Shown one piece after another: positions 3,737 through 58,530 of a stretch of DNA of 64,000 nt (its first letter is position 1; every line of letters begins with the position of its first letter). Location: positions 155,930,001 through 155,994,000 of the forward strand of contig OZ024740.1 in NCBI GenBank assembly GCA_964016885.1, written 5' to 3'. This stretch comes from Eledone cirrhosa. Its lineage: Eukaryota. The notes under the pieces are model-generated. The model was not told where the DNA came from. It did no database searches and saw only the letters and a program-made list of their open reading frames with translations. The translations under genes and the position numbers were made by a program.

Positions 3737-5195
3737 TTGCTGGATGCTTTCCATTGTGTTTTTCTGAGAAAAACGCAATGGAAAGCATCCAGCAAATAGC
3801 TAACTCCATCCACCAGAGTATTAGAGTTACTATAGACTACCCAAGCAAACACCCCAACCATCGATTACCTGTACTAGACACAGAGCTCTGGTTAGATACC
3901 ATTAATAACAAAAAACATATCCTCCATTCCCATTATACCAAACCCATGTCTTCCAAATATCTGATCCACCGAAACTCAGATGTTTCGGACCATACCAAAA
4001 TCAACATACTGATTGCGGATATTGTAGGGGTGATGAGAAACGTGTCCCTCATGTGCAACCCCGAAGAACTAGAGAGACACATACAACACTTCATCCACCG
4101 TATGCAGTTCTCTGGTTACAATTAGTGAGATAAAATCAGAGTGTATAGAGGAGCCAGAACCAAATGTGAAAAAATGGTAAATAATGACACAAATGGGACC
4201 TGCCCCTTGTATAGGAGCAAATTTTGGAATAGAATAGAAAGAACTAGGAATAAGGCTAATAGAATAAACTCATCGATACAACCCCTAGAGGTGAATTAGC
4301 TTACAAATGTAGAAGGGCCCTAGATAAACATAAACTCAATATTAAGATAGTAGAAAGACAGGTACCTCCATAAAAACACTTATTAGCAAGACATACCCTT
4401 TTCAAAGACCCCCTGTATAGATAAGAAATGTATAACCTGTAAATTAAGCCCCCATATTAACTGTAAAACGAGAAATGTAGTATATAGCATAAGATGTACT
4501 GAAGGATAATGTAGAGACAAAAATATAGTGTACATAGGTGAGACAGCTCGTAGTGTAGGGGAACGGATAAATGAACACTGGCGAGACCTTCAAGATAGTA
4601 AAGAATCATCTGTACTCTACCAACATGCTAAAATAGAACATAAGGGTAAATTAGAGTGCATAGAAATAAAAATAGAATCTACACACAGAAAAGACGCAAT
4701 GTTTAGACAAATCACAGAGGCAATAAACATAAAAGAATTACAACCAAAATTAAATAGAAAATATGAGTGGAACAGCAACATCACAACTTACAATTCAGGA
4801 AAAAAGGAAAACACACACGCACATAGAACAAACAACCAACCTGTAACATGTAAATAAACAAATAAATAAACGAATATAAACACACACAGACACCCGGTTG
4901 TGGCGCATGCGCAGACTGAGCACACAACACACACACAGAAACAAGATGGCGTAGGACAGAACAAAGGAGAGACACAAAAACAAAGAAAAGAATCCCCAGT
5001 CACTGAGGAGGTCACAGAATGTGTGACGAAAGAACTTTGACAATATATAAACAACCATCTGGTTGTGGAACCAACCAACCAACGGGAAATTTATAAATTC
5101 CTAAATTTATAAATTTATTATAATAATAAATTGAAGTGAAAGCAACTGGTGCGTGTGTTTCTTATTGGCAACATAACCCTTCCAAAGTATAACAA
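3737..5195 (+). mobile_element. PLE-A 5'-truncated degenerate copy (RT thumb + GIY-YIG + pLTR)
   Basis: Homologous to 57000-58470. Short fold-back at 3737-3795 and (TA)n on both sides. Confidence 0.9.
4999..5041 (+). ncRNA. Hammerhead motif in PLE-A pLTR
   Basis: GTCA-CTGAGGA-G-GTCACA GAATG TGTGAC-GAAA-GAAC-TT-TGAC. Confidence 0.7.
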
Positions 5196-7588: not shown

Positions 7589-10500
7589 TTGTTGTTGTTA
7601 TTGTTGTTTGTGTCTGTGTGTCTGTTGACAGACACAAACAACAATAACAACAACAATAGCAACATACCCAGATACAACAACAACAATAGCAAGATACCCA
7701 GATACAACAGACACGCCGACACAAACAACAATAACAACACACACGGAGACAGCAATAACAACACACACATCAACAACAACAACAATAGCAACATACCCAG
7801 ATACAACAACAACAGACACGCAAACACAAACAACAATAACAACACACACAACAACGATAACACACACACACACGGAGACAACAACAACACACATCAACAA
7901 CAACACACATCAACAACAACAACACACACGCATTCAATGCCTCTCACCACCACCACAATCTTAACAAACACACAGACACATAAAACAAGTAATGTCAGTA
8001 GCACAGAAATCAGAGAAATAAGAGAAAGTAATAGGATTAAAAGGAAAAGGAGATGGGAGACTAAGGACAAAGAGAATAACCAAGACGAACACACAGACAC
8101 ACAAAATAGGGTAGATAACAAGATTGAGCCAGTGGAAAGAGACAGGAGTAATTATGAGAGACATAGAAACAACCATGAAGCTGAGGCTGCTGCTGTTGGT
8201 GGAAATAGAAACAACACAACTAACAATAACAATAGCACTAGTACACATAAAGCAGCAGCCTGGAACTCTCCGTTTTATAACCCCTCCGATAAATCATTCG
8301 ACCTACGACGAGTCCACGCCACGACTTTGCCATTTAACAAACGCACGCAGTTGCCGTCGCAGGTCGATGAACAAACAGAAGCACAATTTAGTATAGCTAA
8401 ATCCGAACTTAGAAATATTATAGAACAGTATAGCAAGAAGCATAATAGAATAGAGGCCCAGCAACTGGGAGAAGAATCTGCAAATAGCTTGCGTAAGCTC
8501 ATGCAGCGCTCGCGTAATGGAGAGATAGCATGCTTTCCAACAGACAAGTCTGGCAGAATGTCGGTTGACAGCCTGCCAAACTACATCCAGGCAATGCAAC
8601 CCCACATCACTAACACAAGAGAGGTAACACCACAGGAGCATGAGGATAGAGAAAAAACCCTCAATGCCCATATGGTGATGTGGACAAATATAATGCAGCC
8701 CAACAAAAGGACTGCCAACAACTTCCAGGCCTGGAACAATGACGTGCCGGCGTTGTATGGGCTTCGAAAAGACCATAAAACGGGCTGGGACCCTGTCGCA
8801 GGACCACCAACACGGCCAGTCTGTGGGGCTAACATTGCTAGTAACTACAGACTGTCCTCTCCCTGATCATACGCCCCATCATTGAGATGTCCCCAGATGT
8901 GTGTGACAGCACGGAGGACCTCCTCAGCAGAATCGGCGCGGGTAACCGATCTGGGGACCTAACAAACTGCATAATAGGCAGTATGGATGTTGTGTCCCTG
9001 TATCCATCTATTGACGTGGACTTTGCTGTGGAGAAATGCGTCGAAATGATCAGCGAGAGCAAGGTTGAGTTCCGTGGGATTGATACCAGTGAGCTGGGAC
9101 TTCTACTTAAGCTTACCCATAGTAATAGTTACCTAGACACTTATGACCTTAGCAACCTGTGCCCTACAAGACCAGCAAGAGGCAGACCACCTACCATTAC
9201 CTCAATGGCCAAGAAAACCCACACAGATAGATGGAACGGGTGGACCAGAGCCATACGGACACCCGAAAACCACGATGAACTGAAGAAAATGATTGCACAT
9301 GCGGTAGGGGCCAGCATAAAATAAACCCTTAAGGAACATATGTTCAAATTTAATGGTAAAACATATGCCCAAGAGGAAGGAGCAACCATTGGTGTTAGCA
9401 TTGCAGGCGACATAGCTAACTTATTCATGGTATGGTGGGACAGTAGACTTAAACAAAAACTTAATGAACAATTAGAAGACAGCTTAACCCTGATAATGTA
9501 CTCCCGCTACGTAGATGATATAAACATCGTAGTTAAGACACCCCCACTAAAGAACAGTCAGGAACTAGAGTAAAACACAATGGAAAGCATCCAGCAAATA
9601 GCAAACTCCATCCACCAGAGCATTAGAGTTACTATAGACTACCCAAGTAGACACCCCAACCATCGATTACCTGTACTAGACACAGAGCTCTGGTTAGATA
9701 CAATTAACAACCAAAAACAAATCCTCCATTCCCATTATGCCAAACCCATGACTTCCAAACATCTGATCCACCGAAACTCGGCCATTTCGGACCATACCAA
9801 AATCAACATACTGATTGCGGATTTGGTACGGGTGATGAGAAATGTGTCCCGCATGTGCAACCCCGAAGAACTAGAGAGACACATACAACACTTCATCCAC
9901 CGTATGCAGTTCTCTGGCTACAATCAGAGAGATAGAATCAGAGTGTACAAAGGAGCCAGAACCAAATGGGAAAAAATGGTAAATAATGACATAAATGGGA
10001 CCTGCCCCTTGTATAGGAGCAAATTTTGGAATAGAATAGAAAGAACTAAGAACAAGGCCAATAGAATAAACTCATGGTATGATAGCAATAAATACCAGAG
10101 TGTAATGTTCATCAATACAACCCCTAGAGGCGAACTAGCCTACAAATTTAGAAGGGCCCTAAAGAAACATAATCTCAATATTAAGATAGTAGAAAGACCT
10201 GGTACCTCCGTAAAAACACTTATTAGCAAGACATACCCGTTCCAAAGACCCTCATGTATAGATAAGAAATGTATAACCTGTAAAATAAGCCCCCATATTA
10301 ACTGTAAAACTAGAAATGTAGTATATAGCATAAGATGTACTGAAGGACAATGTAGAAACAAAAATATAGTGTACATAGGTGAGACAGCTCGTAGTATAGG
10401 GGAACGAATAAATGAACACTGGCGAGACCTCCAAGATAATAAAGCATCATCTGTGCTCTACCAACATGCTAAGATAGAACACAGGGGTAAATTAGAGAGC

Positions 10501-11203
10501 ATAGAAATAAAAATAGAATCCACACACAAGAAAGACGCAATGTTTAGGCAAATTACAGAGGCAGTAAGCATAAAAGAATTAAAACCAAAATTAAATAGAA
10601 AATATGAGTGGAACAGCAACATCACAACTTACAATTAAGGACAAAATGAAAACACACACACACATAGAACAAACAACTTACAATTGAAAACACACACAAA
10701 ATGAAAACACACACAAGACAAAATGAAAACACACACACACATAGAACAAACAACCAACCAACAATAAATAAATAAATAAACAAACAAATAGAAAAATATA
10801 AATAGAAAAATAGAAAAATGAACACAAACACACACAGACACCCGGATGTGGCGCATGCGCAAACTGAGCACGCAACCCACACACAAACAAAATGGCGTAG
10901 GATAGAAGAAAGGAAAGGCACAGAAACGAAGAAAGAAATCCCCAGTCACTGAAGAGGTCACAGAGTGTGTGACGAAAGAACTATGACTATATATATATAA
11001 ACAACTATCTGGTTGTGGAACCAACCAACCAACCAGAAATTTATAAATTTGTAAATTTATAAATATATAATAAATTAAATTGAAGTGAAACAACTGGTGC
11101 GTGTGTTTCTTATTGGCAACATGACCCTCCCAAAGTATAACAATATCGGTTTCAACACACGATTTCAGATAAAGAATCTTGCTAAACAAATTCAGAAACG
11201 AAA
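7589..11203 (+). mobile_element. PLE-A 5'-truncated copy with disrupted RT-GIY-YIG ORF and 3' pLTR
   Basis: RT motifs GLRKDHK..RPV, SMDVVSLYPSI, IGVSIAGDIANLFM, YSRYVDD. EN motif NVVY..YIGETAR..ERINEH. Stops at ~9322 and ~9571. Short inversion at the 5' end. Confidence 0.93.
10944..10988 (+). ncRNA. Hammerhead motif in PLE-A pLTR
   Basis: AGTCA-CTGAAGA-G-GTCACA GAGTG TGTGAC-GAAA-GAAC-TA-TGACT. Confidence 0.78.
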
Positions 11204-12649: not shown

Positions 12650-13205
12650 TTGAGTTTATGTTGGTTGTATACCAACACCTCAGTATGCAGGCTGGAGCAC
12701 TCGACGAAGTGCGCAGGTTGGTTTGGTTACTCCGGAGTAGTGTAAAATAAAGTTAAATAAAAGTCAAATGATTAAAATTTAGCTTCGTTTATTACTGCTA
12801 TATATATTTCAGTGACAGCCATCTTTGGCTGTGACCTCTTCAGGCAGTTTGAATTAGTATGGTATAGACAAGTACATATGTTGTTTAGGTGTATGATATT
12901 GTCAATACTCTGATATGCCCAGTTCCTTGTTGGGTTGTTAATTCACTGGGGAACTGGAGTCATATCTCTTTCAATTGTAAGTGATATGACTCCAGTTCCC
13001 CAGTGAATTAACAACCCAACAAGGAACTGGGCATATCAGAGTATTGACAATATCATACACCTAAACAACATATGTACTTGTCTATACCATACTAATTCAA
13101 ACTGCCTGAAGAGGTCACAGCCAAAGATGGCTGTCACTGAAATATATATAGCAGTAATAAACGAAGCTAAATTTTAATCATTTGACTTTTATTTAACTTT
13201 ATTTT
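12650..13205. mobile_element. Family F fold-back element (~222-bp perfect inverted arms) with a hammerhead in each arm
   Basis: 12745-12966 is the reverse complement of 12983-13205. (TA)n flanks. Confidence 0.88.
13101..13155 (+). ncRNA. Type I hammerhead (family F); mirror copy at 12794-12848 on minus strand
   Basis: ACTGC-CTGAAGA-GGTCACAGCCA AAGA TGGCTGTCACT-GAAA-TATATA-TA-GCAGT. Confidence 0.85.
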
Positions 13206-15674: not shown

Positions 15675-16373
15675 TTAGAAACTGATGTTTTTTTTACAAA
15701 ATGAAAAACAACCGAGGTGTCCTACACGAGTGAAAGTATAAAGAAAAAGAGATGAAATCGAAAATGCAACTGAAGTCTTATTTTTTTAAAAAATATATAT
15801 ATTTATTTGGTTCCTTTACCGGTTTCACAGTTCTTCTGCTTTTCAAAAGGTGAGTTGAGATGGAGGGTCTGTGGTTTTTCTCACATCTGGTTGGTCTCTA
15901 AATGTTACTTGTTTTATATGGAAAAAGTGACTCGAAAGTCAGGTTTTTCGAGAAGTAATTTGATTGGTTTGTCAATAATTATAATAAATTTCGCGCCAGT
16001 TCGCGTTACAATAGTTCTTTAAATAAGAGAGAGAGAGGGGGGGGGGGGGGTTGTCACAGGTTGTTTCTTCATATATGAGTGTTTGAATTTTTTTTTACTT
16101 GAAACAAGGAGGCTCACGAAGGCTTTTTTTTGGTTGGTTATAAATGAAATTTGGCTGTCACGTGAACAAGTTTTCATTACATTCTTGCGCCCTTATTTGG
16201 AAAACTATTCTGTAGTCTTTATAGTGAATGTTATGACAATGGAGAGATAGTGGTCAAGGGAAAAGGGATTGGGAGAAATGTTCTGGTTCAGTGAATATGG
16301 TCAGCTGTCAGAGTTCAGGTGTCAGAGTTCAGATTTTCTATTGAGACTGAAGATATGTGTTTATTTGTGTGCT

Positions 16374-16406
<33 letters not shown>

Positions 16407-16960
16407 ATTGGAAGATGATTCTATTAGTAGAGATGGGGGAGGGAGTTGTGTGTGTGTGTATATGGGTGTTATGTGTGTGTGTGCGAGTATGTTAAGATGG
16501 AGAGAATATATATTTTGTGTGTGTGTATATATATATGTGTGTAGGAAAGTGGTTCTATTAGTAGAAATGGGAGGGAGTTGTAGGTGTGGGAGTTGTTATG
16601 TGTGTGTATGGGTGTTATGTGTGTGGGAGTATGGTTAGCATGTTAAGATGAAGAGAATATATATATATATATTGTGTGTGTGTGTATGTGTGTGTGTAGG
16701 AAAGTGATTCCTTTAGTAGGAAGATGATTCTATTAGTAGAGATGGGGGAGGGAGTTGTGTGTGTGTGTATATGGGTGTTATGTGTGTGTGTGCGAGTATG
16801 TTAAGATGGAGAGAATATATATTTTGTGTGTGTGTATATATATGTGTAGGAAAGTGGTTCTATTAGTAGAAATGGGGAGGGAGTTGTAGGTGTGGGGGTT
16901 ATTATGTGTGTGTATGGGTGTTATGTGTGTGGGAGTATGGTTTGCATGTTAAGATGAAGA

Positions 16961-17005
<45 letters not shown>

Positions 17006-18925
17006 GTGTGTGTGTATGTGTGTGTGTAGGAAAGTGATTCCTTTAGTAGGAATATTTTTGAATGAACATATTTTCCTGACTTTTTCGTGTTTGCTGTTGT
17101 ATTGCCAGTGCAAACGTATGTTAAGGTTTATTTAGTTCGGGTTTTAATTTTCTAAAGTAGAAGGTGTTATGTGTGTGTGTGTATGTCATATTGTGGTGTT
17201 GACATAATGTATATTAAACTTTATTTAATGTTGGTCTATATTTTTGAATAAACATATTTTCCTTATTTATTCGTATTTGTTCTGTTGTATTGTTAGCGCA
17301 AAGGTAAAATGGGAAGACTTGGAATTTGGGTGTCTTATTACTTGCGCAAATGTCTAGATGTGCACTTAGTGGTATCTGTCTCGTGGTTGGATCTCGTAAT
17401 TGTTGGCGATGAACTGTCATTCTGTTTCTGAGTGTGAGTTTAGTTTGTCCTATATAATCTTCATTGCATCCTTTACATTTAATGGCATAAAGTAGATTTT
17501 TTGATGAGCAAGTGAAGTGATTTTTTACAGTAAAATTTTGTCCTGATTTAAATGTATACGTGTTGCCTTCAATGAGGTGAGTGCAGGTTCCACAATTAGA
17601 GCGACCACATTTTTTGATACTTGGTTGTGGGTTTGTGGTAGGTAATTTGGCATTGGTGAGTAATGTTTTCAGTGATTTTGGTTGTCTTTTGCTTTTGATT
17701 ATTTTGTGTGTTTCAAGGGCTTTTTTCATTCTTGTGTTTTGTTTTAGTAGTGGGATGTTATTGTGAATAGTGTTGTAAGCTTCCGCATTTCTTGGGTTGT
17801 GTGTTGAGATATATGATAGAATATTGGACGTACCTTGAATTTGTTTCTGTTTCCGTAATTCATCAATGCCTATTGCTTTAGCCCTTTCTATTCCATTATT
17901 TATTAGTAATAGTGGGTACTCTCTCTCAAGTAGAATTTCCTTTAATTCTTGAAGTCTTTTATTTCGCGTTTCATAATTGGAGACAATTGTGCAAATTCTT
18001 CTTGCTAGGTTAAAAGGAATGTTCGTCTTCGTGTGCTTTGGATGGTTGGAGGTGAATAGCAGATATTGTTTGGAATCTGTTGTTTGTAGTGTATGTCAGT
18101 TTTGGCTGTATTCCATTGTGAATTGGATGTGGTTATTGATGCCGTTTATTAAGTTTTTGAAATCCTTCAGTTGGTCGAGTGTGTGGGACCAAAGAATGAG
18201 GCAATCATCCAAGTAGCGTTTCCAATTCTCTGATAAATATTTGTGGAAGTTCAATCCGTATTTTGATTTGGACTGTTCATATATCTGGACTTCTAAGTAT
18301 GCCATGACTAAGTTGGCATAAGTTGGAGCGGCTTTTGTGCCCATCGCAGTCCCCGATATTTGCTTGTAAGTATTGCCATCGAAATCAAAAAAGTTGTTCT
18401 GTAGGATGAATTTTAATCCCTCGGTAATGAAGCTTTTTTCTATTCTGTCAGGTATCTCATTGGGATATTTCTCTAGCCAGAATCCTATTGCTTCTAGTCC
18501 GTATTGGTGTGGGATCGTTGTGTAGAGATTCACTACATCGAAAGACACAATAATAGTGTCGTTGTTGACATGTTTGGGGAGGTGGTTTAAGAGGTCCAGA
18601 TCGTCTCTTACAAGGCTTGGTATGTGTTTCAGTATTGGTTTCAGTAGTATGTCTATAAAGTTGCTCAATCTGTGTGTTTCACATTGTGGGCCCGCTACAA
18701 TTGGTCTTAATTTAAGGTCTGTGGGGTATTGTGTGTTCACGCAGGCTGAGGTGGATTGTTTACAGACCAACCAGATGTGAGAAAAACCACAGACCCTCCA
18801 TCTCAACTCACCTTTTGAAAAGCAGAAGAACTGCGAAACCGGTAAAGGAACCAAATAAATATATATATTTTTAAAAAAAATAAGACTTCAGTTGCATTTT
18901 CGATTTCATCTCTTTTTCTTTATAT
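15675..18925 (-). mobile_element. PLE-B (Neptune-like) 5'-truncated copy with inverted pLTR piece at the 5' end
   Basis: RT: LRPIV, SFDVVNLYTTI, GTAMG, RYLDD (18096-18760). Cys-rich linker and LLY..YIGQT EN (17214-17729). 15740-15895 is inverted relative to 18765-18925. Confidence 0.92.
18811..18848 (+). ncRNA. Variant-core (U3-A8) minimal hammerhead of PLE-B; other copies at 15813-15850(-), 60368-60403(-), 61172-61207(+)
   Basis: CCTT-TTGAAAA-GCAG AAGAA CTGC-GAAA-CCGG-TA-AAGG. Confidence 0.8.
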
Positions 18926-19480: not shown

Positions 19481-19681
19481 ATAGGAACCAGTAAGACCCC
19501 GACAGCTGACCTCAAGCCGTTTCGACGGCTAATTCTGGAATAGTCCAGAATTAGCCGTCGAAACGGCTTGAGCTCAGCTGTCGGGGTCTTACTGGTTCCT
19601 ATTACCCACTCTACTACCTCAAGTATTGAGTACTTTGGTGCGTTATGGTCCACCTGGTTCCTTACCACATTTCCTTCGTTA
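19481..19681 (+). mobile_element. Family D short fold-back insertion
   Basis: ~58-bp inverted arms plus an 80-bp tail ending TTCCTTCGTTA in (TA)n. Confidence 0.8.
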
Positions 19682-21087: not shown

Positions 21088-21283
21088 TAACGAAGGAAAT
21101 GTGGTAAGGAACCAGGAGGACCATAACGCACCAAAGTACTCAATACTTAGGGTAGTAGAGTGGGTAATAGGAACAAGTAAGACCCCGACGGCTGAGCTCA
21201 AGCCGTTTCGACGGCTAATTCTGGACATGTCCAGAATTAGCCGTCGAAACGGCTGGAGCTCAACCGTCGGGGTCTTACTTGTT

Positions 21284-21288
<5 letters not shown>
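21088..21288 (-). mobile_element. Family D short fold-back insertion
   Basis: Reverse complement of the structure at 19481. Confidence 0.8.
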
Positions 21289-21737: not shown

Positions 21738-21739
<2 letters not shown>

Positions 21740-22358
21740 CGAAGGAAATGTGGTAAGGAACCAGGTGGACCATAACGCACCAAAGTACTCAATACTTAGG
21801 GTAGTAGAGTGGAATAGGAACAAGTAAGACCCCGACGGCTGAGCTCAAGCCGTTTCGACGGCTAATTCTGGACTGAATGAAAATTTATTCTGGTATTTAA
21901 ATAGCCGAGCTTATCACGGGGTAATTCCATATATGGTCAAAGAGATAATCACCAGGATTGGTCACATCAAAAGTTAGTAGTAAATCTGTGATGGCAAATT
22001 GGTGGGGGAAGGGGTAGCTAAACCTGCCGGTAGGAGAAAAAGGGAGAGGGTGGAGTAGACCCATTCATGCGTTGGTAGTGCCGGCTACAGCTGGGCGTGA
22101 GGTCAAAGAGAATACCGGAGAGTGGGAGGGGGAGGAAGTCGAAACGGTAAGTAGAACAATAAAGGGTAAAACTATAAAAAGTACTGAGAATGAAAAAAAA
22201 AATGATGTGATCAATCCTGGTGATTATCTCTTTGACCATATATGGAATTACCCCTTGATAAGCTCGGCTATTTAAATACCAGAATAAATTTTCATTCAGT
22301 CCAGAATTAGCCGTCGAAACGGCTTGAGTTCAGCCGTTGGGGTCTTACTTGTTCCTAT
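21738..22358. mobile_element. Family D long copy with inverted arms, each containing a hammerhead-like motif
   Basis: 21815-21970 is inverted relative to 22203-22358. Confidence 0.8.
22250..22343 (+). ncRNA. Variant-core hammerhead (family D); mirror at 21829-21922(-)
   Basis: ACCCC-TTGATAA-GCTCGGCTA..TAGCCGTC-GAAA-CGGCT TGAGTTC AGCCG-TT-GGGGT. The mirror copy has a GTC cleavage triplet but a GTGATAA core. Confidence 0.65.
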
Positions 22359-30985: not shown

Positions 30986-31193
30986 TAGGAACAAGTAGGA
31001 CACCGACGGCTGAGCTCAAGCCGTTTCGACGGCTAATTCTGGACGAATTAGCCGTCAGTCCAGAATTAGCCGTCGAAACGGCTTGAGCTCAGCCGTCGGG
31101 GTCCTACTTGTTCCTATTACCCACTCTACTACCCTCAGTATTGAGTACTTTGGTGCGTTATGGTCCATCTGGTTCCTTACCACATTTCCTTCG

Positions 31194-31195
<2 letters not shown>
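30986..31195 (+). mobile_element. Family D short fold-back insertion
   Basis: Same arms and tail as 19481. Confidence 0.8.
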
Positions 31196-31233
<38 letters not shown>

Positions 31234-31234
31234 C

Positions 31235-32377
31235 GATGCCATCTCTCAATCACAAGAACAGCTCGATTGCTTTCTATCTTTTGTCCTCTTACGCCGACTT
31301 CATCTCCTCCCATTCAACCCACACCAAACACTCCATACCCTATTCCCAATTCCCCCATCTTCGTCGGCACTGTAGCCAGGACGACGATTTCGAAACCCAT
31401 TCCCTTCACATGGCTTCCAGCTTCATCCAGCGTGGATATCCCCCCACCCTGATTAAAGCTGCTCTCACCCACGCCCGTGAAATCGATCGTATCACAGCCC
31501 TCTCACATCACCAGTACCCTCCAACACCCGCGTTCATTTCCCTCTCACCTACCACCCCATCACCCTACCATTCCGGCGACATTTCCTCCATTCCTTCCGC
31601 ACTCTCTCTTCTGACCCCGTCACTTCTCGCTTTTTTCCAAACCCACCTATTACTGCATTTAAGTGCGCCTGCAACCTCCACGACCTCCTGGGACGCAGTT
31701 CCTTCTCGTCCTCTCCCACGACTCCACCCGCCTCTCATCGTTGTTCTTATCTCCGCTGCAACACTTGTCCCGTCATTTCCAACAGGTCCTAACGGGTCAT
31801 TCCGTATCCGCCACTGTTTCACCTGCACATCCACCCACGTTGTCTATGCCCTCCGGTGTTCCTTTTGCGGGTCTTTATATATCGGACAAACGGTACGCCG
31901 TATGGCGGACCGTTTTGATGAGCATTTGAGGGACATACGACTCAGTTTGGATACTCCTGTCGCCCGTCATTTCTGTTCTCCTGGTCATTCTTCCCTACAT
32001 GTCTCAGTCCTGGGTGTCATGGATCACAGGCACCGCGCACCATGACTGAACATAGTCTGATTCACCGTCTTGGGTCCTATTCCCCTTTTGGACTCAACTT
32101 ACCTTCCCAATTTCTTTAATACCCCGTCCATTATCACACGTGCTTGTACATTCAGCCCTAGATTCCTATCGCTCTCTCATGATCATTAACATCTTCTCTT
32201 ACAACTAATACAGACCGACTAAATATAAACACTCCACTTTTCCCTTCACTGCTCTGTACACACACATATACACCCTTATATTAACATACTTTTGATCATA
32301 GCTTCGTACTTACAAGCACACACACTCCTTTATTTACATATACACACACATTTCTTCTTAGGTTCGTACGGACGTAT

Positions 32378-32424
<47 letters not shown>

Positions 32425-32780
32425 CACACGCACCTGCACAAGTATAGCTCTTTTTACAAAACGTTTTTTTTTCATTTCAGGTAGACGCGCTCCACCATCC
32501 ACTTTTCTAAAAACATAAATCATACTCAAAACGCCAGCACCAACAGTTTTCCCAAAGATGTCAACATGAATGGACCTGTTATTTCCAATTCAACCTGCCC
32601 GTCCCTTCAATCTTTCTTATTTCTCATTTTTTCTTCTGATAAAGGACTAGCATCTGAAACATTAAGACCCTCTTCCTGCTATGTCAAGCATTAACCTAAT
32701 ATATTCCTTCCATATACTCTACTGATTGTGTTGTTATTTCTGTTTACCTTTTACATACATATAATAAATATTTGCTCTAC
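31235..32780 (+). mobile_element. PLE-C (Neptune-like) old truncated copy with a decayed hammerhead at 32632-32667
   Basis: SIPYSQF..RRHCS, QRGYP, FTCTSTHVVY..CSFCGSLYIGQT..RFDEH. Ribozyme relic TCTT-CTGATAA-AGGACTAGCATCT-GAAACATT-AAGA. Confidence 0.8.
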
Positions 32781-33891: not shown

Positions 33892-34477
33892 TTGTTATTC
33901 CTTGAATCTCAGTCATTGATGTTGGTTAACTGGAAAGTCCGTTGGATTGAATATCAAGCCACTACCTGCAGCCTCAGATATTCAGGACGTATCGGAGGGT
34001 TCTTGCTGTTCCAAGCAAGCATGCCTTTTGAAGCGTTCCAAAAAGCGTGAAGGGGCCGATTTTCTTTAACCATCCCTGGAAACTTTTGGAGATAGTCCCC
34101 AGTGCGCCTATGACAATCGGGATCACTTTGACTTCATGGCAGTTCCAAATCCTTTTCACCTCCCACTTTAGGTCCTGGTATCGGTTAATTTTCTCCCTCT
34201 CCTTCTCTTGCACTCTCGTGTCGAACGGGCAGGCCACATCCACAATCAGACACGATCTTTTTTCTTTGTCCACAACCACCAGGTCAGGTCTATTGTGTTC
34301 CAGTTTTTTGTCCGTCTGTATCCTAAAATCCCACAGCACCTTCACCTGATCGTTCTCCATCACCGCCTCTGGCCTATGCTCATACCATTTCTCAGAATGT
34401 GGTAAATTGTTTACTTTGCACAGGTGCCAGTGGATCACCCTGCCCATCACATCGTGTCTCCAGCCCTTATAATTATA

Positions 34478-34525
<48 letters not shown>

Positions 34526-35897
34526 GTTCTTTGAGTCTCAGTCATTGATGTTAATTAACTGGAAAGTTTGTTGAAATGAATATCAAGCTCTACCTGCAGC
34601 GTCAGATATTCAGGACGTATCGGAGGGTTCTTGCTGTTCCCAGCAAGCATGCCTTTTGAAGCGTTCCAAAAAGCGTGGTGGGGCCAATTTTCTTTAACCA
34701 TCCCTGGAAACTTTTTGAGATAGTCCCTAGTGCGCCTATGACAATCGGTACCACTTTGACTTTATGGCAGTTCCAAATCCTTTTTACCTCCCACTTTAAG
34801 TCCTGGTATCGGTTAATTTTCTCCCTCTCCTTCTCTTGCACTCTCGTGTCGAATGAGCAGGCCACATCCACAATCAGGCACGATCTTTTTTCCTTGTCCA
34901 AAACCACCAGGTCAGGTCTATTGTGTTCCAGTTTCTTGTCCGTCTGTATCCTAAAATCCCACAGCACCTTCACCTGATCGTTTTCTATCACCGCCTCTGG
35001 CTTATGCTCATACCACTTCTCAGAAGTGGTAAATTGTTTACTTTGCATAGGTGCCAGTGGATCACCCTGACCATCACATCATATCTCCAGCCCTTATAGT
35101 GAGTCTGGGATAGGTGTTTACACTCGGATACAATGTGAGCCACAGTCTCCTCTCTCTCTCCACAGATCCTGCACAGTGGGCTAGCCTCCTCGTTGTAAAT
35201 ATTGTTTCAACCACTTCGTTTTGAGGGCCTGCTTCTGCGCAGCCATTAGCATTCCTTCTGTAGCCTTTTCAAGGTCACCTCTTTTCAACCAGTTCCATGT
35301 CTGTGGATCTCTGAATTCAGTTTTCTCAAAGAAGGTACTATGAAGGGATTTTTCATATTATTATTATTATTATTATTGTTGTTATTCCTTGAATCTCAGT
35401 CATTGATGTTGGTTAACTGGAAGGTCCGTTGGAATGAATATCAAGCCACTACCTGCAGCCTCAGATATTCAGGACGTATCGGAGGGTTCTTGCTGTTCCA
35501 AGCAAGCATGCCTTTTGAAGCGTTCCAAAAAGCGTGAAGGGGCCGATTTTCTTTAACCATCCCTGGAAACTTTTGGAGATAGTCCCCAGTGCGCCTATGA
35601 CAATCGGGATCACTTTGACTTCATGGCAGTTCCAAATCCTTTTCACCTCCCACTTTAGGTCCTGGTATCGGTTAATTTTCTCCCTCTCCTTCTCTTGCAT
35701 TCTCGTGTCGAACGGGCAGGCCACATCCACAATCAGACACGATCTTTTTTCTTTGTCCACAACCACCAGGTCAGGTCTATTGTGTTCCAGTTTTTTGTCC
35801 GTCTGTATCCTAAAATCCCACAGCACCTTCACCTGATTGTTCTCCATCACCGCCTCCGGCCTATGCTCATACCATTTCTCAGAGTGTGGTAAATTGT
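33892..35897 (-). mobile_element. Three tandem 5'-truncated R4/Dong-like copies (33892-34470, 34524-35356, 35378-35897)
   Basis: RLE domain RPDLVV..IVDVACP..EK..RY. Each copy is separated by (TAA)n. Confidence 0.9.
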
Positions 35898-35924
35898 TAT
35901 TATTATTATTATTATTATTGTTAT

Positions 35925-38223
35925 TGTTATTCCTTGAATCTCAGTCATTGATGTTGGTTAACTGGAAAGTCCGTTGGATTGAATATCAAGCCACTACCTG
36001 CAGCCTCAGATATTCAGGACGTATCGGAGGGTTCTTGCTGTTCCAAGCAAGCATGCATTTTGAAGCGTTCCAAAAAGCGTGAAGGGGCCGATTTTCTTTA
36101 ACCATCCCTGGAAACTTTTGGAGATAGTCCCCAGTGCGCCTATGACAATCGGGATCACTTTGACTTCATGGCAGTTCCAAATCCTTTTCATCTCCCACTT
36201 TAGGTCCTGGTATCGGTTAATTTTCTCCCTCTCCTTCTCTTGCACTCTCGTGTCGAACGGGCAGGCCACATCCACAATCAGGCACGATCTTTTTTCTTTG
36301 TCCACAACCACCAGGTCAGGTCTATTGTGTTCCAGTTTTTTGTCCGTCTGTATCCTAAAATCCCACAGCACCTTCACCTGATTGTTCTCCATCACCGCCT
36401 CTGGCCTATGCTCATACCATTTCTCAGAATGTGGTAGATTGTTTACTTTGCACAGGTGCCAGTGGATCACCCTGCCCATCACATCGTGTCTCCAGCCCTT
36501 ATAGTGGGTCTGGGCTAGGTGTTTACACTCGGACACAATGTGAGCCACAGTCTCCTCTCTCTCTCCACAGATCCTGCACAGTGGGCTAGCCTCCTCCTTG
36601 TAGATATGGTGCTTCAACCACTTCGTTTTGAGGGCCTGCTCCTGCGCAGCCATTAGCATTCCTTCTGTAGCCTTTTTGAGGTCTCCTCTTCTCAACCAGT
36701 TCCATGTCTGTGGATCTCTAAATTCAGTTTTCTCAAAGAAGGTACTATGAAGGGATTTTCCCTTAAGGCTGCTCTTCCTCCTTGATGTTATTTCCTCCCT
36801 GGACATCCCCTGGCCTACTGTCCCCTCCTTCAGTACAGTTCTGAGCATTGGCTCCTTACTATAGGTCACGTATTTGTATAGGTTGTTTTTCTCCATCTGA
36901 ACACAGTCCTCTATGCTGATAAGACCTCTTCCACCCTCAGATCTCCTTAGGTAGAGTCTATCGACATCACTCCTCTTGTGGAACATGTTGTAGATAGTCA
37001 ATAGCTTCCTAGTCTTCCTATCCATTTCTTTTTGTTCAGCAACATTCCATCTCAGAATTCCCGCACTGTACCTAATAATAGACACAGCTCGGGAATTTAC
37101 TGCGCTTATGGCATTTCTGCTGTTCAGATGTGATTTCAATATGCTCCTTACTCTCCGAATGTATTCAGTTCTTAACAATTCCTTCATTTTTTTGTTCTTT
37201 ATGCCATCAGCCTCCAGAACGCCCAAATACTTGTATCCTTCCTCAGAGTCAATTTCCTTTATCATCTCACCTGTTGGTATCTGGATCCCATTACTTCTGC
37301 TCAACCTACCCCTCTTCATCACAATGACTCCACATTTACCAATACCAAACTGCATACATATATCACTGCTGAAAATACGGACAGTGTCAACAAGCACATC
37401 CAACTCCTTCTCACTTTTCCTGAAGAGCTTAAGATCGTCCATGAAGAGGAGGTGATTGATGGTAAGCTCTCCCCTTCCCAACTTGTATCCTGCTCTCACT
37501 TTTCGCAGCATAATGGTCAAGGGCATCAGGGCAAGGACAAACAACAGAGGGGACAGGCTATCTCCCTGGAAGATACCTCTCTTGATCTTCACGCTTCCCA
37601 AGGATACTCCAGTTGATGTCAACTCTGTCTCCCAGGACCCCATACTCCTGCCTAGCAACTGTCTGATGTTATCTGCCACCCTGAAGATCTCCAGGCTTTT
37701 GGTGATCCAGGAATGAGGCACCATGTCAAATGCCTTTCTGTAGTCTATCCATCCCATGGCAAGATCAGTGTGTCTCCTCCTGCAATTCCCCATTACCATC
37801 TTATCAATAAGCAACTGGTCCTTTGTACCACGTGACTTCTTTCGGCATCCTTTCTGTTCGTCCGGTAACAAGTTGTTTGTGTGGAGGTGATGGTAGATTT
37901 CCTCAGACACAATGCTCGTCAACAGTTTCCACATTACGGGCAGACATGTGATAGGTCTATAGTTGGTAGCATCATTACCCTTGATTCGGTCTTTCATTAT
38001 CAGAACTGTGGTACCTTTTGTCAACCACTCTGGCACCTCACCCGACACCAAGCAGTCATTGAACATGGCCGTCAGCTTCGGGTGGAGGGATGTTAGATGT
38101 TTAATCCAATACCCCTGCACACCATCTGGGCCTGGTGATTTCCAGTTGGTTAGTTTTTTGGCTTGCCCCTTAAGAGTTTCAACTGTGATACTCAAATCAG
38201 TCTGTTGCTGTGCCTGCTCACCG
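35925..38223 (-). mobile_element. R4/Dong-like non-LTR retrotransposon, open RT + CCHC + RLE frame (36006-38223), 5' truncated
   Basis: SPGPDG, YRPI, DYRKAFD, GIFQGDSLSP, FMDD, CRIC..H..C and PD-(D/E)xK motifs. (TAA)n flanks. Confidence 0.93.
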
Positions 38224-38272
<49 letters not shown>

Positions 38273-38594
38273 TTATTCTTTTTCGCAATTCTCCAAAAGT
38301 TCTGTTCCATCAGTCTCATTACCACTTTTCTCTTTTCCTCTCCTCTTTCTTCTCTCTATACCCTTCACATTTCTCATCTCATGCTTTAGACTATCTTTTT
38401 TCCCTTCTCTCCCGCTCTCTGTTCAATATGTAGTTATATCTTAACCCAACTTGTTACTATACATATAGTATCCAGCTGACTACAACTACCCTTGGCGCTA
38501 AAATATCCTACACTTTTATCAAAATTCATATACACTCATTGCTTCAAACCTTTTCAATTAATGTTTACACACCCACAGACACATATATACAAGG

Positions 38595-39210: not shown

Positions 39211-42200
39211 GTATAGTGTAGTCAGTGTGATACTATACATATAGTGTAGTCAGTGTGATACTATACATATAGTGTAGTCAGTGTGATACTATACATATAG
39301 TGTAGTCAGGGTGATACTATACATATAGTGTAGTCGGGGTGATACTATACGTATAGTGTAGTCAGTGTGATACTATACATATAGTGTAGTCGGGGTGATA
39401 CTATACATATAGTGTAGTCAGTATGATACTATACATATAGTGTAGTCAGTGTTATGCTATACATATAATGTACTCAAGGTGATACTATACATATAGTGTA
39501 GTCAGTGTGATACTATACATATAGTGTAGTCAGTGTGATACTATACATATAGTGTAGTCAGTATGATACTATACATATAATGTAGTCAGTGTGATACTAT
39601 ACATATAGTGTAGTCAGTGTGATACTATACATATAGTGTAGTCAGGGTGATACTATACATATAGTGTAGTCAGGGTGATACTATACATATAGTGTAGTCG
39701 GTGTGATACTATACATATAGTGTAGTCGGTGTGATACTATACGTATAGTGTAGTCGGTGTGATACTATACATATATTGTAGTCGGTGTGATACTATACGT
39801 ATAGTGTAGTCGGTGTGATACTATACGTATGGTGTAGTCAGTGTGATACTATACATATAGTGTAGTCAGTGTGATACTATACATATAGTGTAGTCAGTGT
39901 GATACTATACATATAGTGTAGTCAGTGTGATACTATATGTATAGTGTAGTCAGTGTGATACTATACATATAGTGTAGTCAGTGTGATACTATACATATAG
40001 TGTAGTCGGTGTGATACTATACATATAGTGTAGTCAGGGTGATACTATACATATAGTGTAGTCAGTATGATACTATACATATAGTGTAGTCAGTGTGATA
40101 CTATACATATAGTGTAGTCAGTGTGATACTATACTTATAGTGTAGTCAGTGTGATACTATACATATAGTGTAGTCAGTGTGATACTATACATATAGTGTA
40201 GTTAGTGTGATAATATACATATAGTGTAGTCGGTGTGATACTATACATATAGTGTAGTCAGTGTGATACTATACATATAGTGTAGTCGGGGTGATACTAT
40301 ACATATAGTGTAGTCGGTGTGATACTATACATATAGTGTAGTCAGTATGATACTATACGTATAGTGTAGTCAGTGTGATACTATACATATAGTGTAGTCA
40401 GTGTGATACTATACATATAGTGTAGTCAGTGTGATACTATACATATAGTGTAGTCAAGGTGATACTATACATATAGTGTAGTCAGTGTGATACTATACAT
40501 ATAGTGTAGTCGGTGTGATACTATACATATAGTGTAGTCAGTGTGATACTATACATATAGTGTAGTCAGTGTGATACTATACATATAGTGTAGTCAGTGT
40601 GATACTATACATATAGTGTAGTCAGTGTGATACTATACATATAGTGTAGTCAGTGTGATACTATACATATAGTGTAGTCAGTGTGATACTATACATATAG
40701 TGTAGTCAGTGTGATACTATACATATAGTGTAGTCAGTGTGATACTATACATATAGTGTAGTCAGTGTGATACTATACATATAGTGTAGTCAGTATGATA
40801 CTATACATATAGTGTAGTCAGTGTGATACTATACATATAGTGTAGTCAGTGTGATACTATACGTATAGTGTAGTCAGTGTGATACTATACATATAGTGTA
40901 GTCAGTGTGATACTATACATATAGTGTAGCCAGTGTGATACTATACATATAGTGTAGTCGGTGTGATACTATACATATAGTGTAGTCGGTGTGATACTAT
41001 ACATATAGTGTAGTCGGTGTGATACTATACATATAGTGTAGTCAGTATGATATTATATATATAGTGTAGTCAGGGTGATACTATACATATAGTGTAGTCA
41101 GTGTGATACTACACGTGTAGTGTAGTCAGTGTGATACTATACATATAGTGTAGTCAGGGTGATACTATACATATAGAGTAGTCAGTGTGATACTATACAT
41201 ATAGTGTAGTCGGTGTGATACTATACATATAGTGTAGTCGGGGTGATACTATACATATAGTGTAGTCAGTGTGATACTATACATATAGTGTAGTCGGTGT
41301 GATACTATACATATAGTGTAGTCAGTGTGATACTATACATATAGTGTAGTCAGTGTGATACTATACATATAGTGTAGTTAGTGTGATAATATACATATAG
41401 TGTCGTCGGTGTGATACTATACATATAGTGTAGTCAGTGTGATACTATACATATAGTGTAGTCGGGGTGATACTATACATATAGTGTAGTCAGTGTGATA
41501 CTATACATATAGTGTAGTCGGTGTGATACTATACATATAGTGTAGTCAGTGTGATACTATACATATAGTGTAGTCAGTGTGATACTATACATATAGTGTA
41601 GTTAGTGTGATAATATACATATAGTGTAGTCGGTGTGATACTATACATATAGTGTAGTCAGTGTGATACTATACATATAGTGTAGTCGGGGTGATACTAT
41701 ACATATAGTGTAGTTGGTGTGATACTATACATATAGTGTAGTCAGTGTGATACTATACATATAGTGTAGTCGGTGTGATACTATACATATAGTGTAGTCA
41801 GTGTGATACTATACATATAGTGTAGTCAAGGTGATACTATACATATAGTGTAGTCAGTGTGATACTATACATATAGTGTAGTCAGTGTGATACTATACAT
41901 ATAGTGTAGTCAGTGTGATACTATACATATAGTGTAGTCAGTGTGATACTATACATATAGTGTAGTTAGTGTGATACTATAAATATAGTGTAGTCGGTGT
42001 GATACTATACGTATAGTGTAGTCGGTGTGATACTATACATATATTGTAGTCGGTGTGATGCTATACATATAGTGTAGTCGGTGTGATACTATACATATAG
42101 TGTAGTCAGTATGATATTATATATATAGTGTAGTCAGGGTGATACTATACATATAGTGTAGTCAGTGTGATACTACACGTATAGTGTAGTCAGTGTGATA

Positions 42201-45200
42201 CTATACATATAGAGTAGTCAGGGTGATACTATACATATTGACTAGTCAGGGTGATACTATACATATAGAGTAGTCAGTGTGATACTATACATATAGTGTA
42301 GTCAGTGTGATATTATACGTATAGTGTAGTCAGTGTGATACTATACGTATAGTGTAGTCAGTGTGATACTATACATATAGTGAAGTCAGTGTGATACTAT
42401 ATATATAGAGTAGTCAGGGTGATACTATATATATACTGTAGTCAGTGTGATACTACACGTATGGTGTAGTCAGGGTGATACTATACATATAGTGTAGTCA
42501 GTGTGACACTATACATATAGTGTAGTCAGGGTGATACTATACGTATAGTGTAGTCAGGGTGATACTATATATATACCGTAGTCGGTGTGATACTATACGT
42601 ATAGTGTAGTCAGGGTGATACTATACATATAGTGTAGTCAGTGTGATACTATACATATAGTGTAGTCAGGGTGATACTATACGTATAGTGTAGTCAAGGT
42701 GATACTATACATATAGTGTAGACAGTGTGTTACTATACATATAGTGTAGTCAGGGTGATACTATACATATAGTGTAGTCAGTGTGATACTATACATATAG
42801 TGAAGACAGTGTGATACTATATATATAGAGTAGTCAGGGTGATACTATATATATACTGTAGTCAGTGTGATACTACACGTATGGTGTAGTCAGGGTGATA
42901 CTATACATATAGTGTAGTCAGTGTGACACTATACATATAGTGTAGTCAGTGTGATACTATACATATAGTGTAGTCAGTGTGATACTCTACGTATAGTGTA
43001 GTCAGTGTGATACTATACATATAGTGTAGTCAGTGTGATACTATACATATAGTGTAGTCAGTGTGATACTATACATATAGTGTAGTCAGAGTGATACTAT
43101 ACATATAGTGTAGTCAGAGTGATACTATACATATAGTGTAGTCAGAGTGATACTATACATATAGTGTAGTCAGTGTGATACTATACATAAAGTGTAGTCA
43201 GGGTGATACTATACATATAGTGTAGTCGGGGTGATACTATACATATAGTGTAGTCATTGTAATATTATACGTATAGTGTACTCTGGGTGATACTATACAT
43301 ATACTGTAGTCAGGGTGATACTATACATATAGTGTAGTCAGTGTGATACTATACATATTGTGTAGTCAGGGTGATACTATACATATAGTGAAGTCAGGGT
43401 GATACTATACATATAGTGTAGTCAGAGTGATTCTATACATATAGTGTAGTCGGGGTGATACTACACATATAGTGTAGTTAGTGTGATACTATATGTATAG
43501 TGTAGTCAGTGTGATACTATACGTGTAGTGTAGTCGGGCTGATATAATACGTATAGTGTAGTCAGTGTGATACTATACATATAGTGTAGTCAGTGTGATA
43601 CTATACATATAGTGTAGTCAGGGTGATACTATACATATAGTGTAGTCAGGGTGATACTATACGTATAGTGTAATCAGCGTGATACTATACATATAGTGTA
43701 GTCAGTGTGATACTATACATATAGTGTAGTCAGGGAGATACTATACATATAGTGTAATTAGTGTGATAATATACATATAGTGTAGTCGGTGTGATAATAT
43801 ATATATAGAGTAGTCAGTGTGATACTATATATATAGTGTAGTCAGTGTGATACTATACATATAGTGTAGTCAGGGTGATACTATACATATAGTGTAGTCA
43901 GGGTGATTCTATACTTATAGTGTAGTCAGTGTAATACTATACATATAATGTAGGCATGGTGATACTATACATATAGTGTAGTCAGGGTGATACTATACGT
44001 ATAGTGTAGTCGGGGTGATTCTATACATATAGTGTAGTCAGTGTGATACTATAAATATAGTGTAGTCGGTGTGATACTATACATATAGTGTAGGCAGGAT
44101 GATACTATACATATAGTGTAGTCAGTGTGATACTATACATATAGTGTAGTCAGTGTGATACTATAAATATAGTGTAGTCGGTGTGATACTATACATAGAG
44201 TGTAGTCGGGTTGATAATATACAATATAGTCGGGGTGATACTATACATATAGTGTAGTCGGTGTTATACTATACGTATCGTATAGTCGGTTGATACTATA
44301 CATATAGTGTAGTCAGTATGATACTATACATATAGTGTAGTCAGAGTGATGCTATACATATAGTGTAGTCAGTGTGATACTATACATATAGTGTAGTCAG
44401 AGTGATGCTATACATATAGTGTAGTCAGTATGATACTATACATATAGTGTAGTCAGTGTGATACTATACATATAGTGTAGTCAGGGTGATACTATACATA
44501 TAGTGTAGTCAGCGTGATACTATACATATAGTGTAGTCAGTGTGATACTATACATATAGTGTAGTCAGGGTGATACTATACATATAGTGTAGTCAGAGTG
44601 AAACTATACATATAGTGTAGTCAGTGTGATACTCGACATATATTGTAGTCGGTGTGATACTATACATATAGTGTAGTCAGGGTGATACTATACGTATAGT
44701 GTAGTCAGTGTGATACTATACATATAGTGTAGTCAGGGTGATACTATACATTTAGTGTAGTCTGTATGATACTATACGTATAGTGTAGTCAGTGTGATAC
44801 TATACGTATAGTGTAGTCAGTGTGATACTATACGTATAGTGTAGTCAGTGTGATACTATACATATAGTGTAGTCAGGGTGATACTATACATTTAGTGTAG
44901 TCTGTATGATACTATACATATAGTGTAGTCAGTGTGATACTATATCTATAGTGTAGTCAGTGTGATACTATACGTATAGTGTAGTCAGTGTGATACTATA
45001 CATATAGTGTAGTCAGGGTGATACTATACATTTAGTGTAGTCTGTATGATACTACACGTATAGTGTAGTCAGTATGATACTATACATATAGTGTAGTCAG
45101 TGTGATACTATACATATTGTGTAGTCAGGGTGATACTATACATATAGTGTAGTCAGTGTGATACTCTACGTATAGTGTAGTCAGTGTGATACTATAAATA

Positions 45201-47626: not shown

Positions 47627-48471
47627 AAATTACGATATTTTTGTTTCTTGAGTTGAAAGTGGTGAAAGGATTGGCAGGACAGATTATGAATGCGTCTTTC
47701 TTGGTGTCCTCCCCACATAACCGATTCTGAGAGACAGTAAGAAAGAGAGAGAGAGAGAGAAGAGGGAGAGAGATAGGTGTAGAGAGAGAGAGAGAGAGAG
47801 GTGTGACTGGTACCTTATTTATCAACGCTGTAAATATGAAAGTCATAGCTAGCCTCGGCGGGATTTGAATTCAGAGATTCACTTTTTCCTCTTCTCTTGA
47901 AGAAATCTGCTGTATTCAGAACTAGATAGGAGTTGGGCTCCGCCAGGTTTTAAAATGTTCTAGAAACGCCATATGTCAATACGACAACAGGCTATCGGCT
48001 TGTGGGTGGAGCAGTATTGTAATCTGTATCACCTAGCACTTTATGAAATCGGGATAAGCTCCGATCTGACGCGACTCGAGCTCCGAGACAGACTTTAGAA
48101 ATTCTCTAAAATTAAGCTCAATCCTGTGTCAAATCCATTACGTGATTTGTTTTTATTTATAGTCGAAGTATTTTCTCTTCACTTGCAGCACGTACTCACT
48201 ATCGAGCCACTAACGCGGAAGCTGGTGCTGTCGTAGGGAAATGGAGGGGCTACGTCGAACGCTTCTGATATAGCTTTCTCACTTCTATTCTTTCAAATTT
48301 TCCTCTTCTCTGGAAGAAATCTGCTGTATTCAGAACTTGATAGGAGTTGTGCTGCGCCAGGTTTTAACATGCCCTAGAAACGCCGTATGTCAATATGGCG
48401 CCCCTACGACTCCCTCAGGAATTACGGGTCCATATATACATACAATATTAAAAACAGGATTTCAGACTTAC

Positions 48472-58200: not shown

Positions 58201-58530
58201 ACAACACACACACAGAAACAAAATGGCGTAGGACAGAACAAAGGAGAGGCACAAAAACAAAGAAAAGAATCCCCAGTCACTGAAGAGGTCACAGAGTGTG
58301 TGACGAAAGAACTATGACAATATATAAACAACTATCTGGTTGTGGAACCAACCAACCAACAAGAAATTTATAAATTTATAAATTTATTAATTTATTATAA
58401 TAAATTGAAGTGAAAGCAACTGGTGCGTGTGTTTCTTATTGGCAACATGACCCTCCCAAAGTATAACAATATCGGTTTCAACACACGATTTCAGATAAAG
58501 AATCTTGCTAAACAAATTCAGAAACGAAAT
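53815..58530 (+). mobile_element. PLE-A full-length copy: inverted pLTR piece (53815-53932), 5' pLTR (53933-54437), disrupted ORF 54329-58074, 3' pLTR (58012-58530)
   Basis: Classic partial-tandem PLE layout with RT and GIY-YIG motifs. Lesions near 55300, 56030, 56980 and 57052. Hammerheads at 54197-54239 and 58276-58318. Confidence 0.95.

Follow-up and report, generated by a model that had tools for sequence, protein, structure and literature searches.

Between positions 21739 and 22358 of the window, by which we mean the whole stretch of 64,000 nucleotides that was analysed, lies an insertion of a repeat family that we refer to as family D. The surrounding sequence is animal DNA rich in (TA)n and inverted repeat pairs. 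The sense of the element is the minus strand, running from 22202 to 21739, and its inverted partial copy occupies 22203-22358. Read along the minus strand, the order is 233 nt of pyrimidine-rich unique sequence, 47 nt, a 94-nt hammerhead motif, 15 nt to the arm end, a 75-nt tail and (TA)n. The parts of the insertion are as follows.

21739-22358: whole insertion, a 5'-truncated element end with an inverted partial copy; (TA)n or AT repeats flank both sides
21739-21813, minus strand: one-sided tail of 75 nt beyond the inverted arm's end; thousands of reads show (TA)n joined to its ends at 21739-21749 and 21814
21829-21922, minus strand: left-arm type I hammerhead motif, with G3 at 21917, A8 at 21912, G12-A13-A14 at 21856-21854, C17 at 21834 and the site GUC
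21835-21853, minus strand: helix III (6 bp) with its loop, together forming a palindrome of 18 nt plus an additional U, mirrored at 22319-22337 on the plus strand
21857-21910, minus strand: helix II domain of 54 nt; break point of most copies at 21868-21878, in the 3' strand
21970-22202, minus strand: unique pyrimidine-rich sequence upstream of the motif, present at family depth in reads
22138-22147, minus strand: 10-nt exact complement of the G12-A13-A14 strand, a candidate cis lock identified post hoc
22203-22358, plus strand: inverted arm, 97.4% identical to 21969-21814
22250-22343, plus strand: right-arm type I hammerhead motif, with U3 at 22255, A8 at 22260 and U17 at 22338

The arms of the inverted repeat (21814-21969 and 22203-22358, 156 nt each) differ at four of their 156 places, namely at position 3 of the motif, which is G in the left arm and U in the right, at position 17, which is C and U, respectively, at a loop III base and at an upstream base. 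The arm end at 21814 appeared fixed in 3891 and 3618 reads, with AT repeats adjoining it. No recognisable reverse transcriptase (RT) or endonuclease code was found on the minus strand of 21970-22202, a region that is likely to be a 3' UTR or the upstream part of the end repeat. Just 3' of the motif, the minus strand of 21790-21828 contains, by eye only, letters resembling a branch point, a pyrimidine tract and YAG. Introns are known in the end repeats of Penelope-like elements (PLEs), and a 3' splice site at this place would fit them.

The hammerhead motif of the two arms

Each arm carries the 94-nt motif with the type I core in its proper order (N3 U4 G5 A6 N7 N8 A9 ... G12 A13 A14 A15.1 ... 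U16.1 H17), and all the letters described in the original prediction were found in both arms. The right arm consists of helix I ACCCC/GGGGT, the core TTGATAA, CGGCTA/TAGCCG around 37 nt, GAAA, a helix III of 6 bp (A15.1-U16.1 plus CGGCT/AGCCG) and the site GUU, its U17 being a C in the other seven of the eight arms aligned. As had been stated, this arm has the Watson-Crick pair U3-A8, and the left arm has G3 with A8, hence no such pair, together with a GUC site; the predicted cleavage point of the latter falls between 21834 and 21833. Both motifs belong to a single insertion, one in each arm, and are not independent copies.

Helix II is composed of G10.1-C11.1, A10.2-U11.2 (the family majority), a bulged U, the 6-bp CGGCUA/UAGCCG, an internal loop and an apical hairpin. 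The letters of the stem II loop of about 37 nt that had been reported are all present, but its open character did not hold, since the region is predicted to be mostly paired and to form an extended helix II with an internal loop. A9 directly adjoins G10.1, and the unpaired base that minimal dimer-type PLE hammerheads have between positions 9 and 10.1 is absent. In these minimal motifs helix III has 1-2 bp and is unstable as a monomer, whereas here it has 6 bp and forms a hairpin of -7.1 kcal/mol; the palindromic helix III and loop 3 of the dimer type are nevertheless found. This near-perfect palindrome, which the original prediction did not mention, is intact in five of the eight arms aligned. 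The canonical contact between loop I and loop II is not apparent, and helix II lacks a loop at the usual distance. Since published PLE motifs also lack this contact, its absence lowers only the case for a canonical extended hammerhead.

We evaluated how often such a motif could arise within a hairpin-rich repeat by chance. A descriptor designed after the motif was seen, with a helix I of at least 5 bp, a helix II run of at least 5, a helix III of at least 5 and an NUH site, matched the real window once with a Watson-Crick 3-8 pair and twice with any letters at 3 and 8, and in 200 shuffles of the 41.5-kb unmasked window the summed matches were 0 and 2, respectively. All the core positions occur in order, 3-8 is paired in the family majority, G10.1-C11.1 and a palindromic helix III accompany them, and the motif lies near the tail as in other PLEs. 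A fortuitous resemblance is thus scarcely credible to us, even though the Rfam search returned no hammerhead match, either at gathering score or at E <= 10 (the matches present were two tRNA-like ones only at gathering score, and low-complexity ones at E <= 10), and the fold of the family-majority letters reached a z of only -1.55, a stability that is not unusual, with 23 of 300 shuffles as good.

Family core and predicted folding

Position 3 of the family was determined in four public runs (of 19) compared with 21739-22202 at an 85% likeness cut-off, two of them contig sets (X1, from organism A, and X5, from organism B) and two of them restriction libraries from organism A (X17 and X18). U3, at 21917, was the majority letter in all four: it appeared in 234 of 245 reads with 43 start places in X17 and in 214 of 228 reads with 24 start places in X18, and it accounted for 78% of the contig depth in X1 (52 contigs) and 61% in X5 (two of three contigs), the single divergent X5 contig without U3 having a depth of 22.1 of 56.1. 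The proposal of U3-A8 as the core of the family is therefore borne out, the consensus being U3 in every run, not G or a variable letter, with that one contig as the exception. Given the U3 majority in reads, the left arm most likely acquired its G3 later, through decay. In the same runs position 7 is G (about 80%) and position 10.2 is A (54-66%). No change at A8 occurs among the 40 of 127 read differences listed, and the only T-to-C place in X5 is 21889, so that G8 is absent from X5; a minor G8 or G3-C8 subfamily may exist beyond this set. Judging from the depth tables, six majority letters appear to sit together on a single X5 contig, which would be the one most like the window.

Read ends in X17 and X18 fall on AATT sites, which biases the copies that these libraries sample. 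Five of the six listed piles of read ends (21867, 21882, 21923, 21926 and 21997) were rejected as biological ends, being AATT sites in restriction libraries; the sixth, at 21878, falls within the fold-back zone. Because of the same bias, T at 21865, which reaches 76-79% in the restriction libraries versus 35% in X1 and 10% in X5, was dropped from the set of majority letters. In X17 and X18, 1392 and 1544 reads run past 21864, in the 3' strand of helix II, into one other sequence (median 80 nt), which may stem from a single abundant junction or from a subfamily whose helix II has a different top.

With the family-majority letters, a hammerhead with an unpaired core is the predicted lowest-energy fold of the monomer, its probability, P(hammerhead), being about 0.54 for the 94 nt, 0.53 for the arm and 0.39 for the arm with its tail. 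These values agree with the expectation that helix III would allow monomeric folding. Restoring G3 lowered P to 0.051 and restoring C10.2 lowered it to 0.057, the A10.2-U11.2 pair (0.057 to 0.54) being the sole majority change in helix II that matters. A general strengthening of helix II by the majority letters was discarded, as 578 of 2000 random triples were as good for the three helix II letters concerned. The right arm with its own letters has a P(hammerhead) of 0.040, although its three helices form nonetheless, and its fold has a z of -2.38, with 2 of 200 shuffles as good. For the left arm with its own letters P is 0.0035, and G3 is predicted to pair with C17 at 0.98, so that its fold would be trapped; such a 3-17 trap is described for other hammerheads in the available part of PMC3884650.

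A dimer formed through the helix III palindrome is predicted to be 16.5 kcal/mol more stable than two hairpins. On these folding predictions, the motif would be able to fold alone yet would retain a dimer-type mark. The contrast with typical PLE hammerheads that the original prediction had drawn could not be upheld, given that the palindromic signature of dimers is kept, the dimer is predicted to be the more stable form and monomeric PLE hammerheads with a large helix III have already been published. RNA reading through the insertion is predicted to form a 156-bp hairpin, with P(hammerhead) below 1e-86 on both strands. This hairpin would exclude the hammerhead fold, and the present copy is therefore likely to be silent, with G3 and U17 as probable signs of decay.

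Whether the motif of the parent element would cut slowly is, in our estimation, a matter of roughly even chances. According to the available text of the respective sources, U3-A8 occurs in nature and is stated to be active in vitro (PMC3088659), animal PLE motifs cut poorly in vitro and a large-helix-III motif from a fungus cuts in monomeric form (PMC4209133). A pairwise scan of a type III hammerhead, as far as its available text goes, showed rescue of 3-8 by the G-C swap only, other double changes being low (PMC9901934), and U3-A8 may therefore be slow.

The candidate lock at 22138-22147 could suggest a different behaviour, namely an efficient monomeric ribozyme whose RNA is held uncut for reverse transcription by the lock and which cuts once the lock is removed. 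An exact 10-nt complement appeared in 16 of 2000 shuffles, and the 464-nt unit with majority letters has a P(hammerhead) of 7e-6, as compared with a median of 0.09 when the upstream sequence is shuffled (0 of 60 as low) and with 0.039 when only the 10-mer is scrambled; moreover, all four window copies extend beyond the cleavage site. We consider this behaviour unlikely, however, for the lock was noticed post hoc, its duplex energy is unremarkable (147 of 500 shuffles) and so is the local alignment (312 of 2000). A mismatch at 22142, present in about one third of reads and in the sole X5 contig there, lifts P to 0.007, and 5 of 40 shuffles are as low if the upstream letters are those of the window itself. 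Besides, at a distance of about 280 nt, the lock would have to outcompete two local hairpins. We likewise discarded an origin of the insertion's middle part as an ancient inverted motif copy, as 312 of 2000 shuffles gave a local alignment as good.

Short fold-back copies and a probable Penelope-like origin

In addition to what had been noticed previously, the window contains three extra copies of family D with the 3' half of the motif only.

19481-19681, plus strand: short fold-back copy that retains the tail and only the motif's 3' half, with its inversion point at the helix II tip
21090-21285, minus strand: second short fold-back copy, with the same break point and other junction letters
30988-31194, plus strand: third short fold-back copy, with the same break point and a 12-nt duplicated piece at the junction

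These copies, of about 200 nt, have the tail, and their inverted arm ends at the same point as that of the insertion at 21739-22358. The break at 21873-21878, near the helix II tip, is found in three of the four window insertions with three different junctions, and such copies are therefore devoid of the core strand holding positions 3-9. Opposite-strand joints at 21861-21878 were also detected in reads. The ratio of tail depth to depth of the motif 5' half is 20.1 in X1 and 21.3 in X5, the step falling between 21867 and 21883. About 95% of copies are without the 5' half of the ribozyme, in agreement with three of the four window copies, although contig depth does not translate into copy number and divergent 5' halves can escape the 85% cut-off. 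The simplest reading of the step is that reverse transcription stops and turns back at the helix II tip.

A depth step of about 20-fold within some 30 nt, seen in the contig sets of both organisms (A and B), might also be expected if family D were mainly a non-autonomous fold-back repeat that has shed its 5' half and is copied in trans by a Penelope enzyme, the full motif being a non-cutting relic. Three of the four window copies are indeed fold-backs of about 200 nt without the U3-A8 half, and cutting is unnecessary for insertion in vitro, according to the available text of PMC11167929. As the three junctions differ, however, they are more easily explained by repeated stops at a single structure than by a master copy, and the full-length majority retains an intact paired core and the GUC site, all of which makes a relic of this kind rather improbable as the main explanation. 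The fold-back reading is, in any case, compatible with an origin from a Penelope end repeat, and both can coexist.

Our preferred reading, which we regard as probable, is that the insertion is a truncated, partly inverted and dead copy derived from the end repeat (pseudo-LTR) of a Penelope-like element, whose family motif is a type I U3-A8 hammerhead with a helix III predicted to serve both monomer and dimer. An inverted 5'-truncated copy beside the end repeat and a one-sided 75-nt tail are present in all four window copies, and the target is (TA)n or AT-rich, with the hammerhead near the 3' end, as in PLEs. The available text of PMC8557442 describes PLE insertions with an inverted 5'-truncated copy, a one-sided tail, a (TA)n target and a hammerhead in the end repeat, although the usual tail there is 30-40 nt, as opposed to 75 nt in family D. 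No RT or endonuclease frame of family D is attached to its four window copies, which are all truncated, and exact-pattern scans of metagenome contigs and viral contigs yielded 0 loci of the family. Membership among the Penelope-like elements therefore rests on layout.

The same absence of a protein frame might point to a tandem retrozyme, that is, a circular-RNA element, or to another non-Penelope hammerhead repeat, the more so as animal non-LTR retrozymes are described as having type I hammerheads, a more stable helix III and no ORF (PMC7229834, available text). Head-to-tail arrays of about 300 bp would then be expected, but no tandem unit was seen in the window, nor did it contain retrozyme-type units of 150-400 bp arranged head to tail with a complete hammerhead apiece. 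Neither did a head-to-tail joint occur among the 15 of 25 read joints listed. Since the inverted arm, the tail and the (TA)n target agree with PLE insertions, we consider a retrozyme or another non-Penelope repeat very unlikely.

For the Penelope-like element that we favour, the following course of events could be proposed. An RT-endonuclease would nick (TA)n and start reverse transcription at the tail end of uncleaved RNA; the four window copies run 95 nt past the cleavage site and so suggest an uncleaved template. Reverse transcription would mostly stop near the helix II tip before turning back along its own cDNA; a second fixed point, 21814, would be where the inverted arm ends. About one copy in 20 might pass the helix II stop and keep the whole motif, as 21739-22358 does. 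The motif of the parent element would cut slowly at GUC, between 21834 and 21833, trimming tandem or read-through RNA, and cutting would be dispensable for insertion. A more elaborate scenario, in which an animal Penelope family has stretched helix III to 6 bp and combines a monomer-competent U3-A8 core, the 10-nt lock as an off switch during transposition, an RT stop in helix II and fold-backs that may be self-spreading, appears doubtful to us. If true, it would mean that nature has made a hammerhead that can be switched, and it would open the inverted ends of Penelope elements to study at the nucleotide level.

Several other repeats were observed in the window.

15741-18920, with a further inverted pair at 60326-61281: second U3-A8 family, with minimal hammerheads at 18811-18848 (plus strand) and 15813-15850 (minus strand), a palindromic ACCGGT helix III and inverted arms around an RT + GIY-YIG frame at 17214-18887 (minus strand)
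12794-13155: inverted pair whose two arms each bear a minimal hammerhead of the canonical C3-G8 type
31234-32720: C-rich truncated element, probably a decayed copy, with a frame resembling Penelope thumb + GIY-YIG by eye and no Pfam match, and a hammerhead-like core near 32637 in which C3 and A8 are unpaired
49811-50607: inverted repeat family in (TA)n with a tRNA-like sequence in each arm (49894-49957, minus strand, and 50375-50439, plus strand; Rfam tRNA, 43 bits), possibly a tRNA-derived sequence inside a Penelope-type end repeat
39212-47627: 28-bp satellite of about 300 copies with 92% matches
3766-5194, 7933-11202 and 55370-58528: three copies of another Penelope-like family, rich in A, with frames that resemble RT and GIY-YIG and with partial tandem ends; neither of the two scanned frames had a Pfam match
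33900-38309: LINE-like RT frame (minus strand, RVT_1 4.9e-23) whose 3' end is repeated four times in tandem

The second U3-A8 family shows the same inverted layout as family D, around its RT + GIY-YIG frame, which speaks for a Penelope-like origin of family D. The named relatives of this frame are Argonauta and Octopus proteins only (four named animal matches among 68), and the host is therefore likely to be an octopod. The two families share no alignable sequence (best E 3.7), and with end repeats this short, two origins, as had been put forward, and an old common descent are indistinguishable. The PLE frame at 31254-32042, beside the third short copy, was rejected as that of family D, because it lies beyond the (TA)n run and its 3' region is unlike family D (best E 3.7).

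Comparison with known hammerheads and Penelope-like elements

Statements made below on published systems refer to the available portions of the sources cited. The occurrence of U3-A8 in Penelope hammerheads is not new, having been reported by Cervera and De la Pena in 2014 in pseudo-LTRs, in the Cercyon elements of Schistosoma mansoni, with about 1,300 motifs (PMC4209133); Fig. S3 of the same work includes two rows with UUGA..A cores. The headline feature of family D therefore adds little by itself; its helix III of 6 bp, its long helix II and its depth step are less usual. The papers listed by our literature searches included no description of family D, which may already be catalogued in Repbase or Dfam.

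With the animal PLE motifs of PMC4209133, family D shares the type I topology, a 5-bp helix I, a long helix II with G10.1-C11.1, a palindromic helix III and U3-A8, as well as the layout of opposite-strand motif pairs 100-700 bp apart that is described there for S. mansoni PLEs. It departs from them in several respects. Its helix III has 6 bp and is G+C-rich, versus about 1-3 bp in the extracted text of Fig. S3 for 56 animal motifs, among which no cephalopod appears, and its helix II domain spans 54 nt, versus roughly 10-25. Instead of an extra base between 9 and 10.1, moreover, it has a bulged U after two pairs. A palindromic loop 3 has been published as the hallmark of hammerheads of the dimer type (PMC4209133, PMC3088659). 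Likewise, Perreault et al. (2011) documented U3-A8 covariation in several natural hammerheads, as well as a palindromic stem III and loop III in repeat-type motifs (PMC3088659); family D has U3-A8 and the palindromic stem III in common with these motifs, but family and architecture differ.

A large helix III is also a property of the PLE hammerheads of the Serpula lacrymans type from fungi and protists, which fold as monomers, with a reported kobs of 0.16-1.97 per min for the fungal motif (PMC4209133). These motifs and family D have in common the type I topology, the large helix III and no recognisable contact between loop I and loop II (PMC4209133). Their hosts, however, are endonuclease-lacking, telomere-associated elements (PMC4209133), whereas family D is animal, dispersed in (TA)n, and has U3-A8 and a palindromic loop III.

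In vitro, the Poseidon element of Anolis carolinensis is copied mainly from uncut RNA, and its tail is delimited by two RT start sites (Frangieh et al. 2024, PMC11167929). Family D resembles this element, which inserts from uncut RNA, in its two fixed 3' end points, the AT-rich target and the hammerhead upstream of the tail (PMC11167929). Poseidon nevertheless has C3-G8, cuts only with protein and has a known ORF (PMC11167929), whereas family D is known from truncated copies without an ORF.

Animal non-LTR retrozymes have been proposed to derive from PLE end repeats (PMC7229834; bioRxiv 10.64898/2026.07.22.740005), and they are, like family D, non-coding repeats with a type I hammerhead (PMC7229834; bioRxiv 10.64898/2026.07.22.740005). 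They form head-to-tail arrays with canonical loop contacts (PMC7229834; bioRxiv 10.64898/2026.07.22.740005), in contrast to the inverted, tailed and dispersed copies described here.

The sharp truncation and fold-back point in helix II, with its varied junctions, provides a lead on how the inverted ends of PLEs are formed and on the need for the ribozyme. Owing to its stable helix III, the motif can be assayed as a single short RNA, unlike dimer-only motifs, and could thus serve to test whether animal U3-A8 cores cut.
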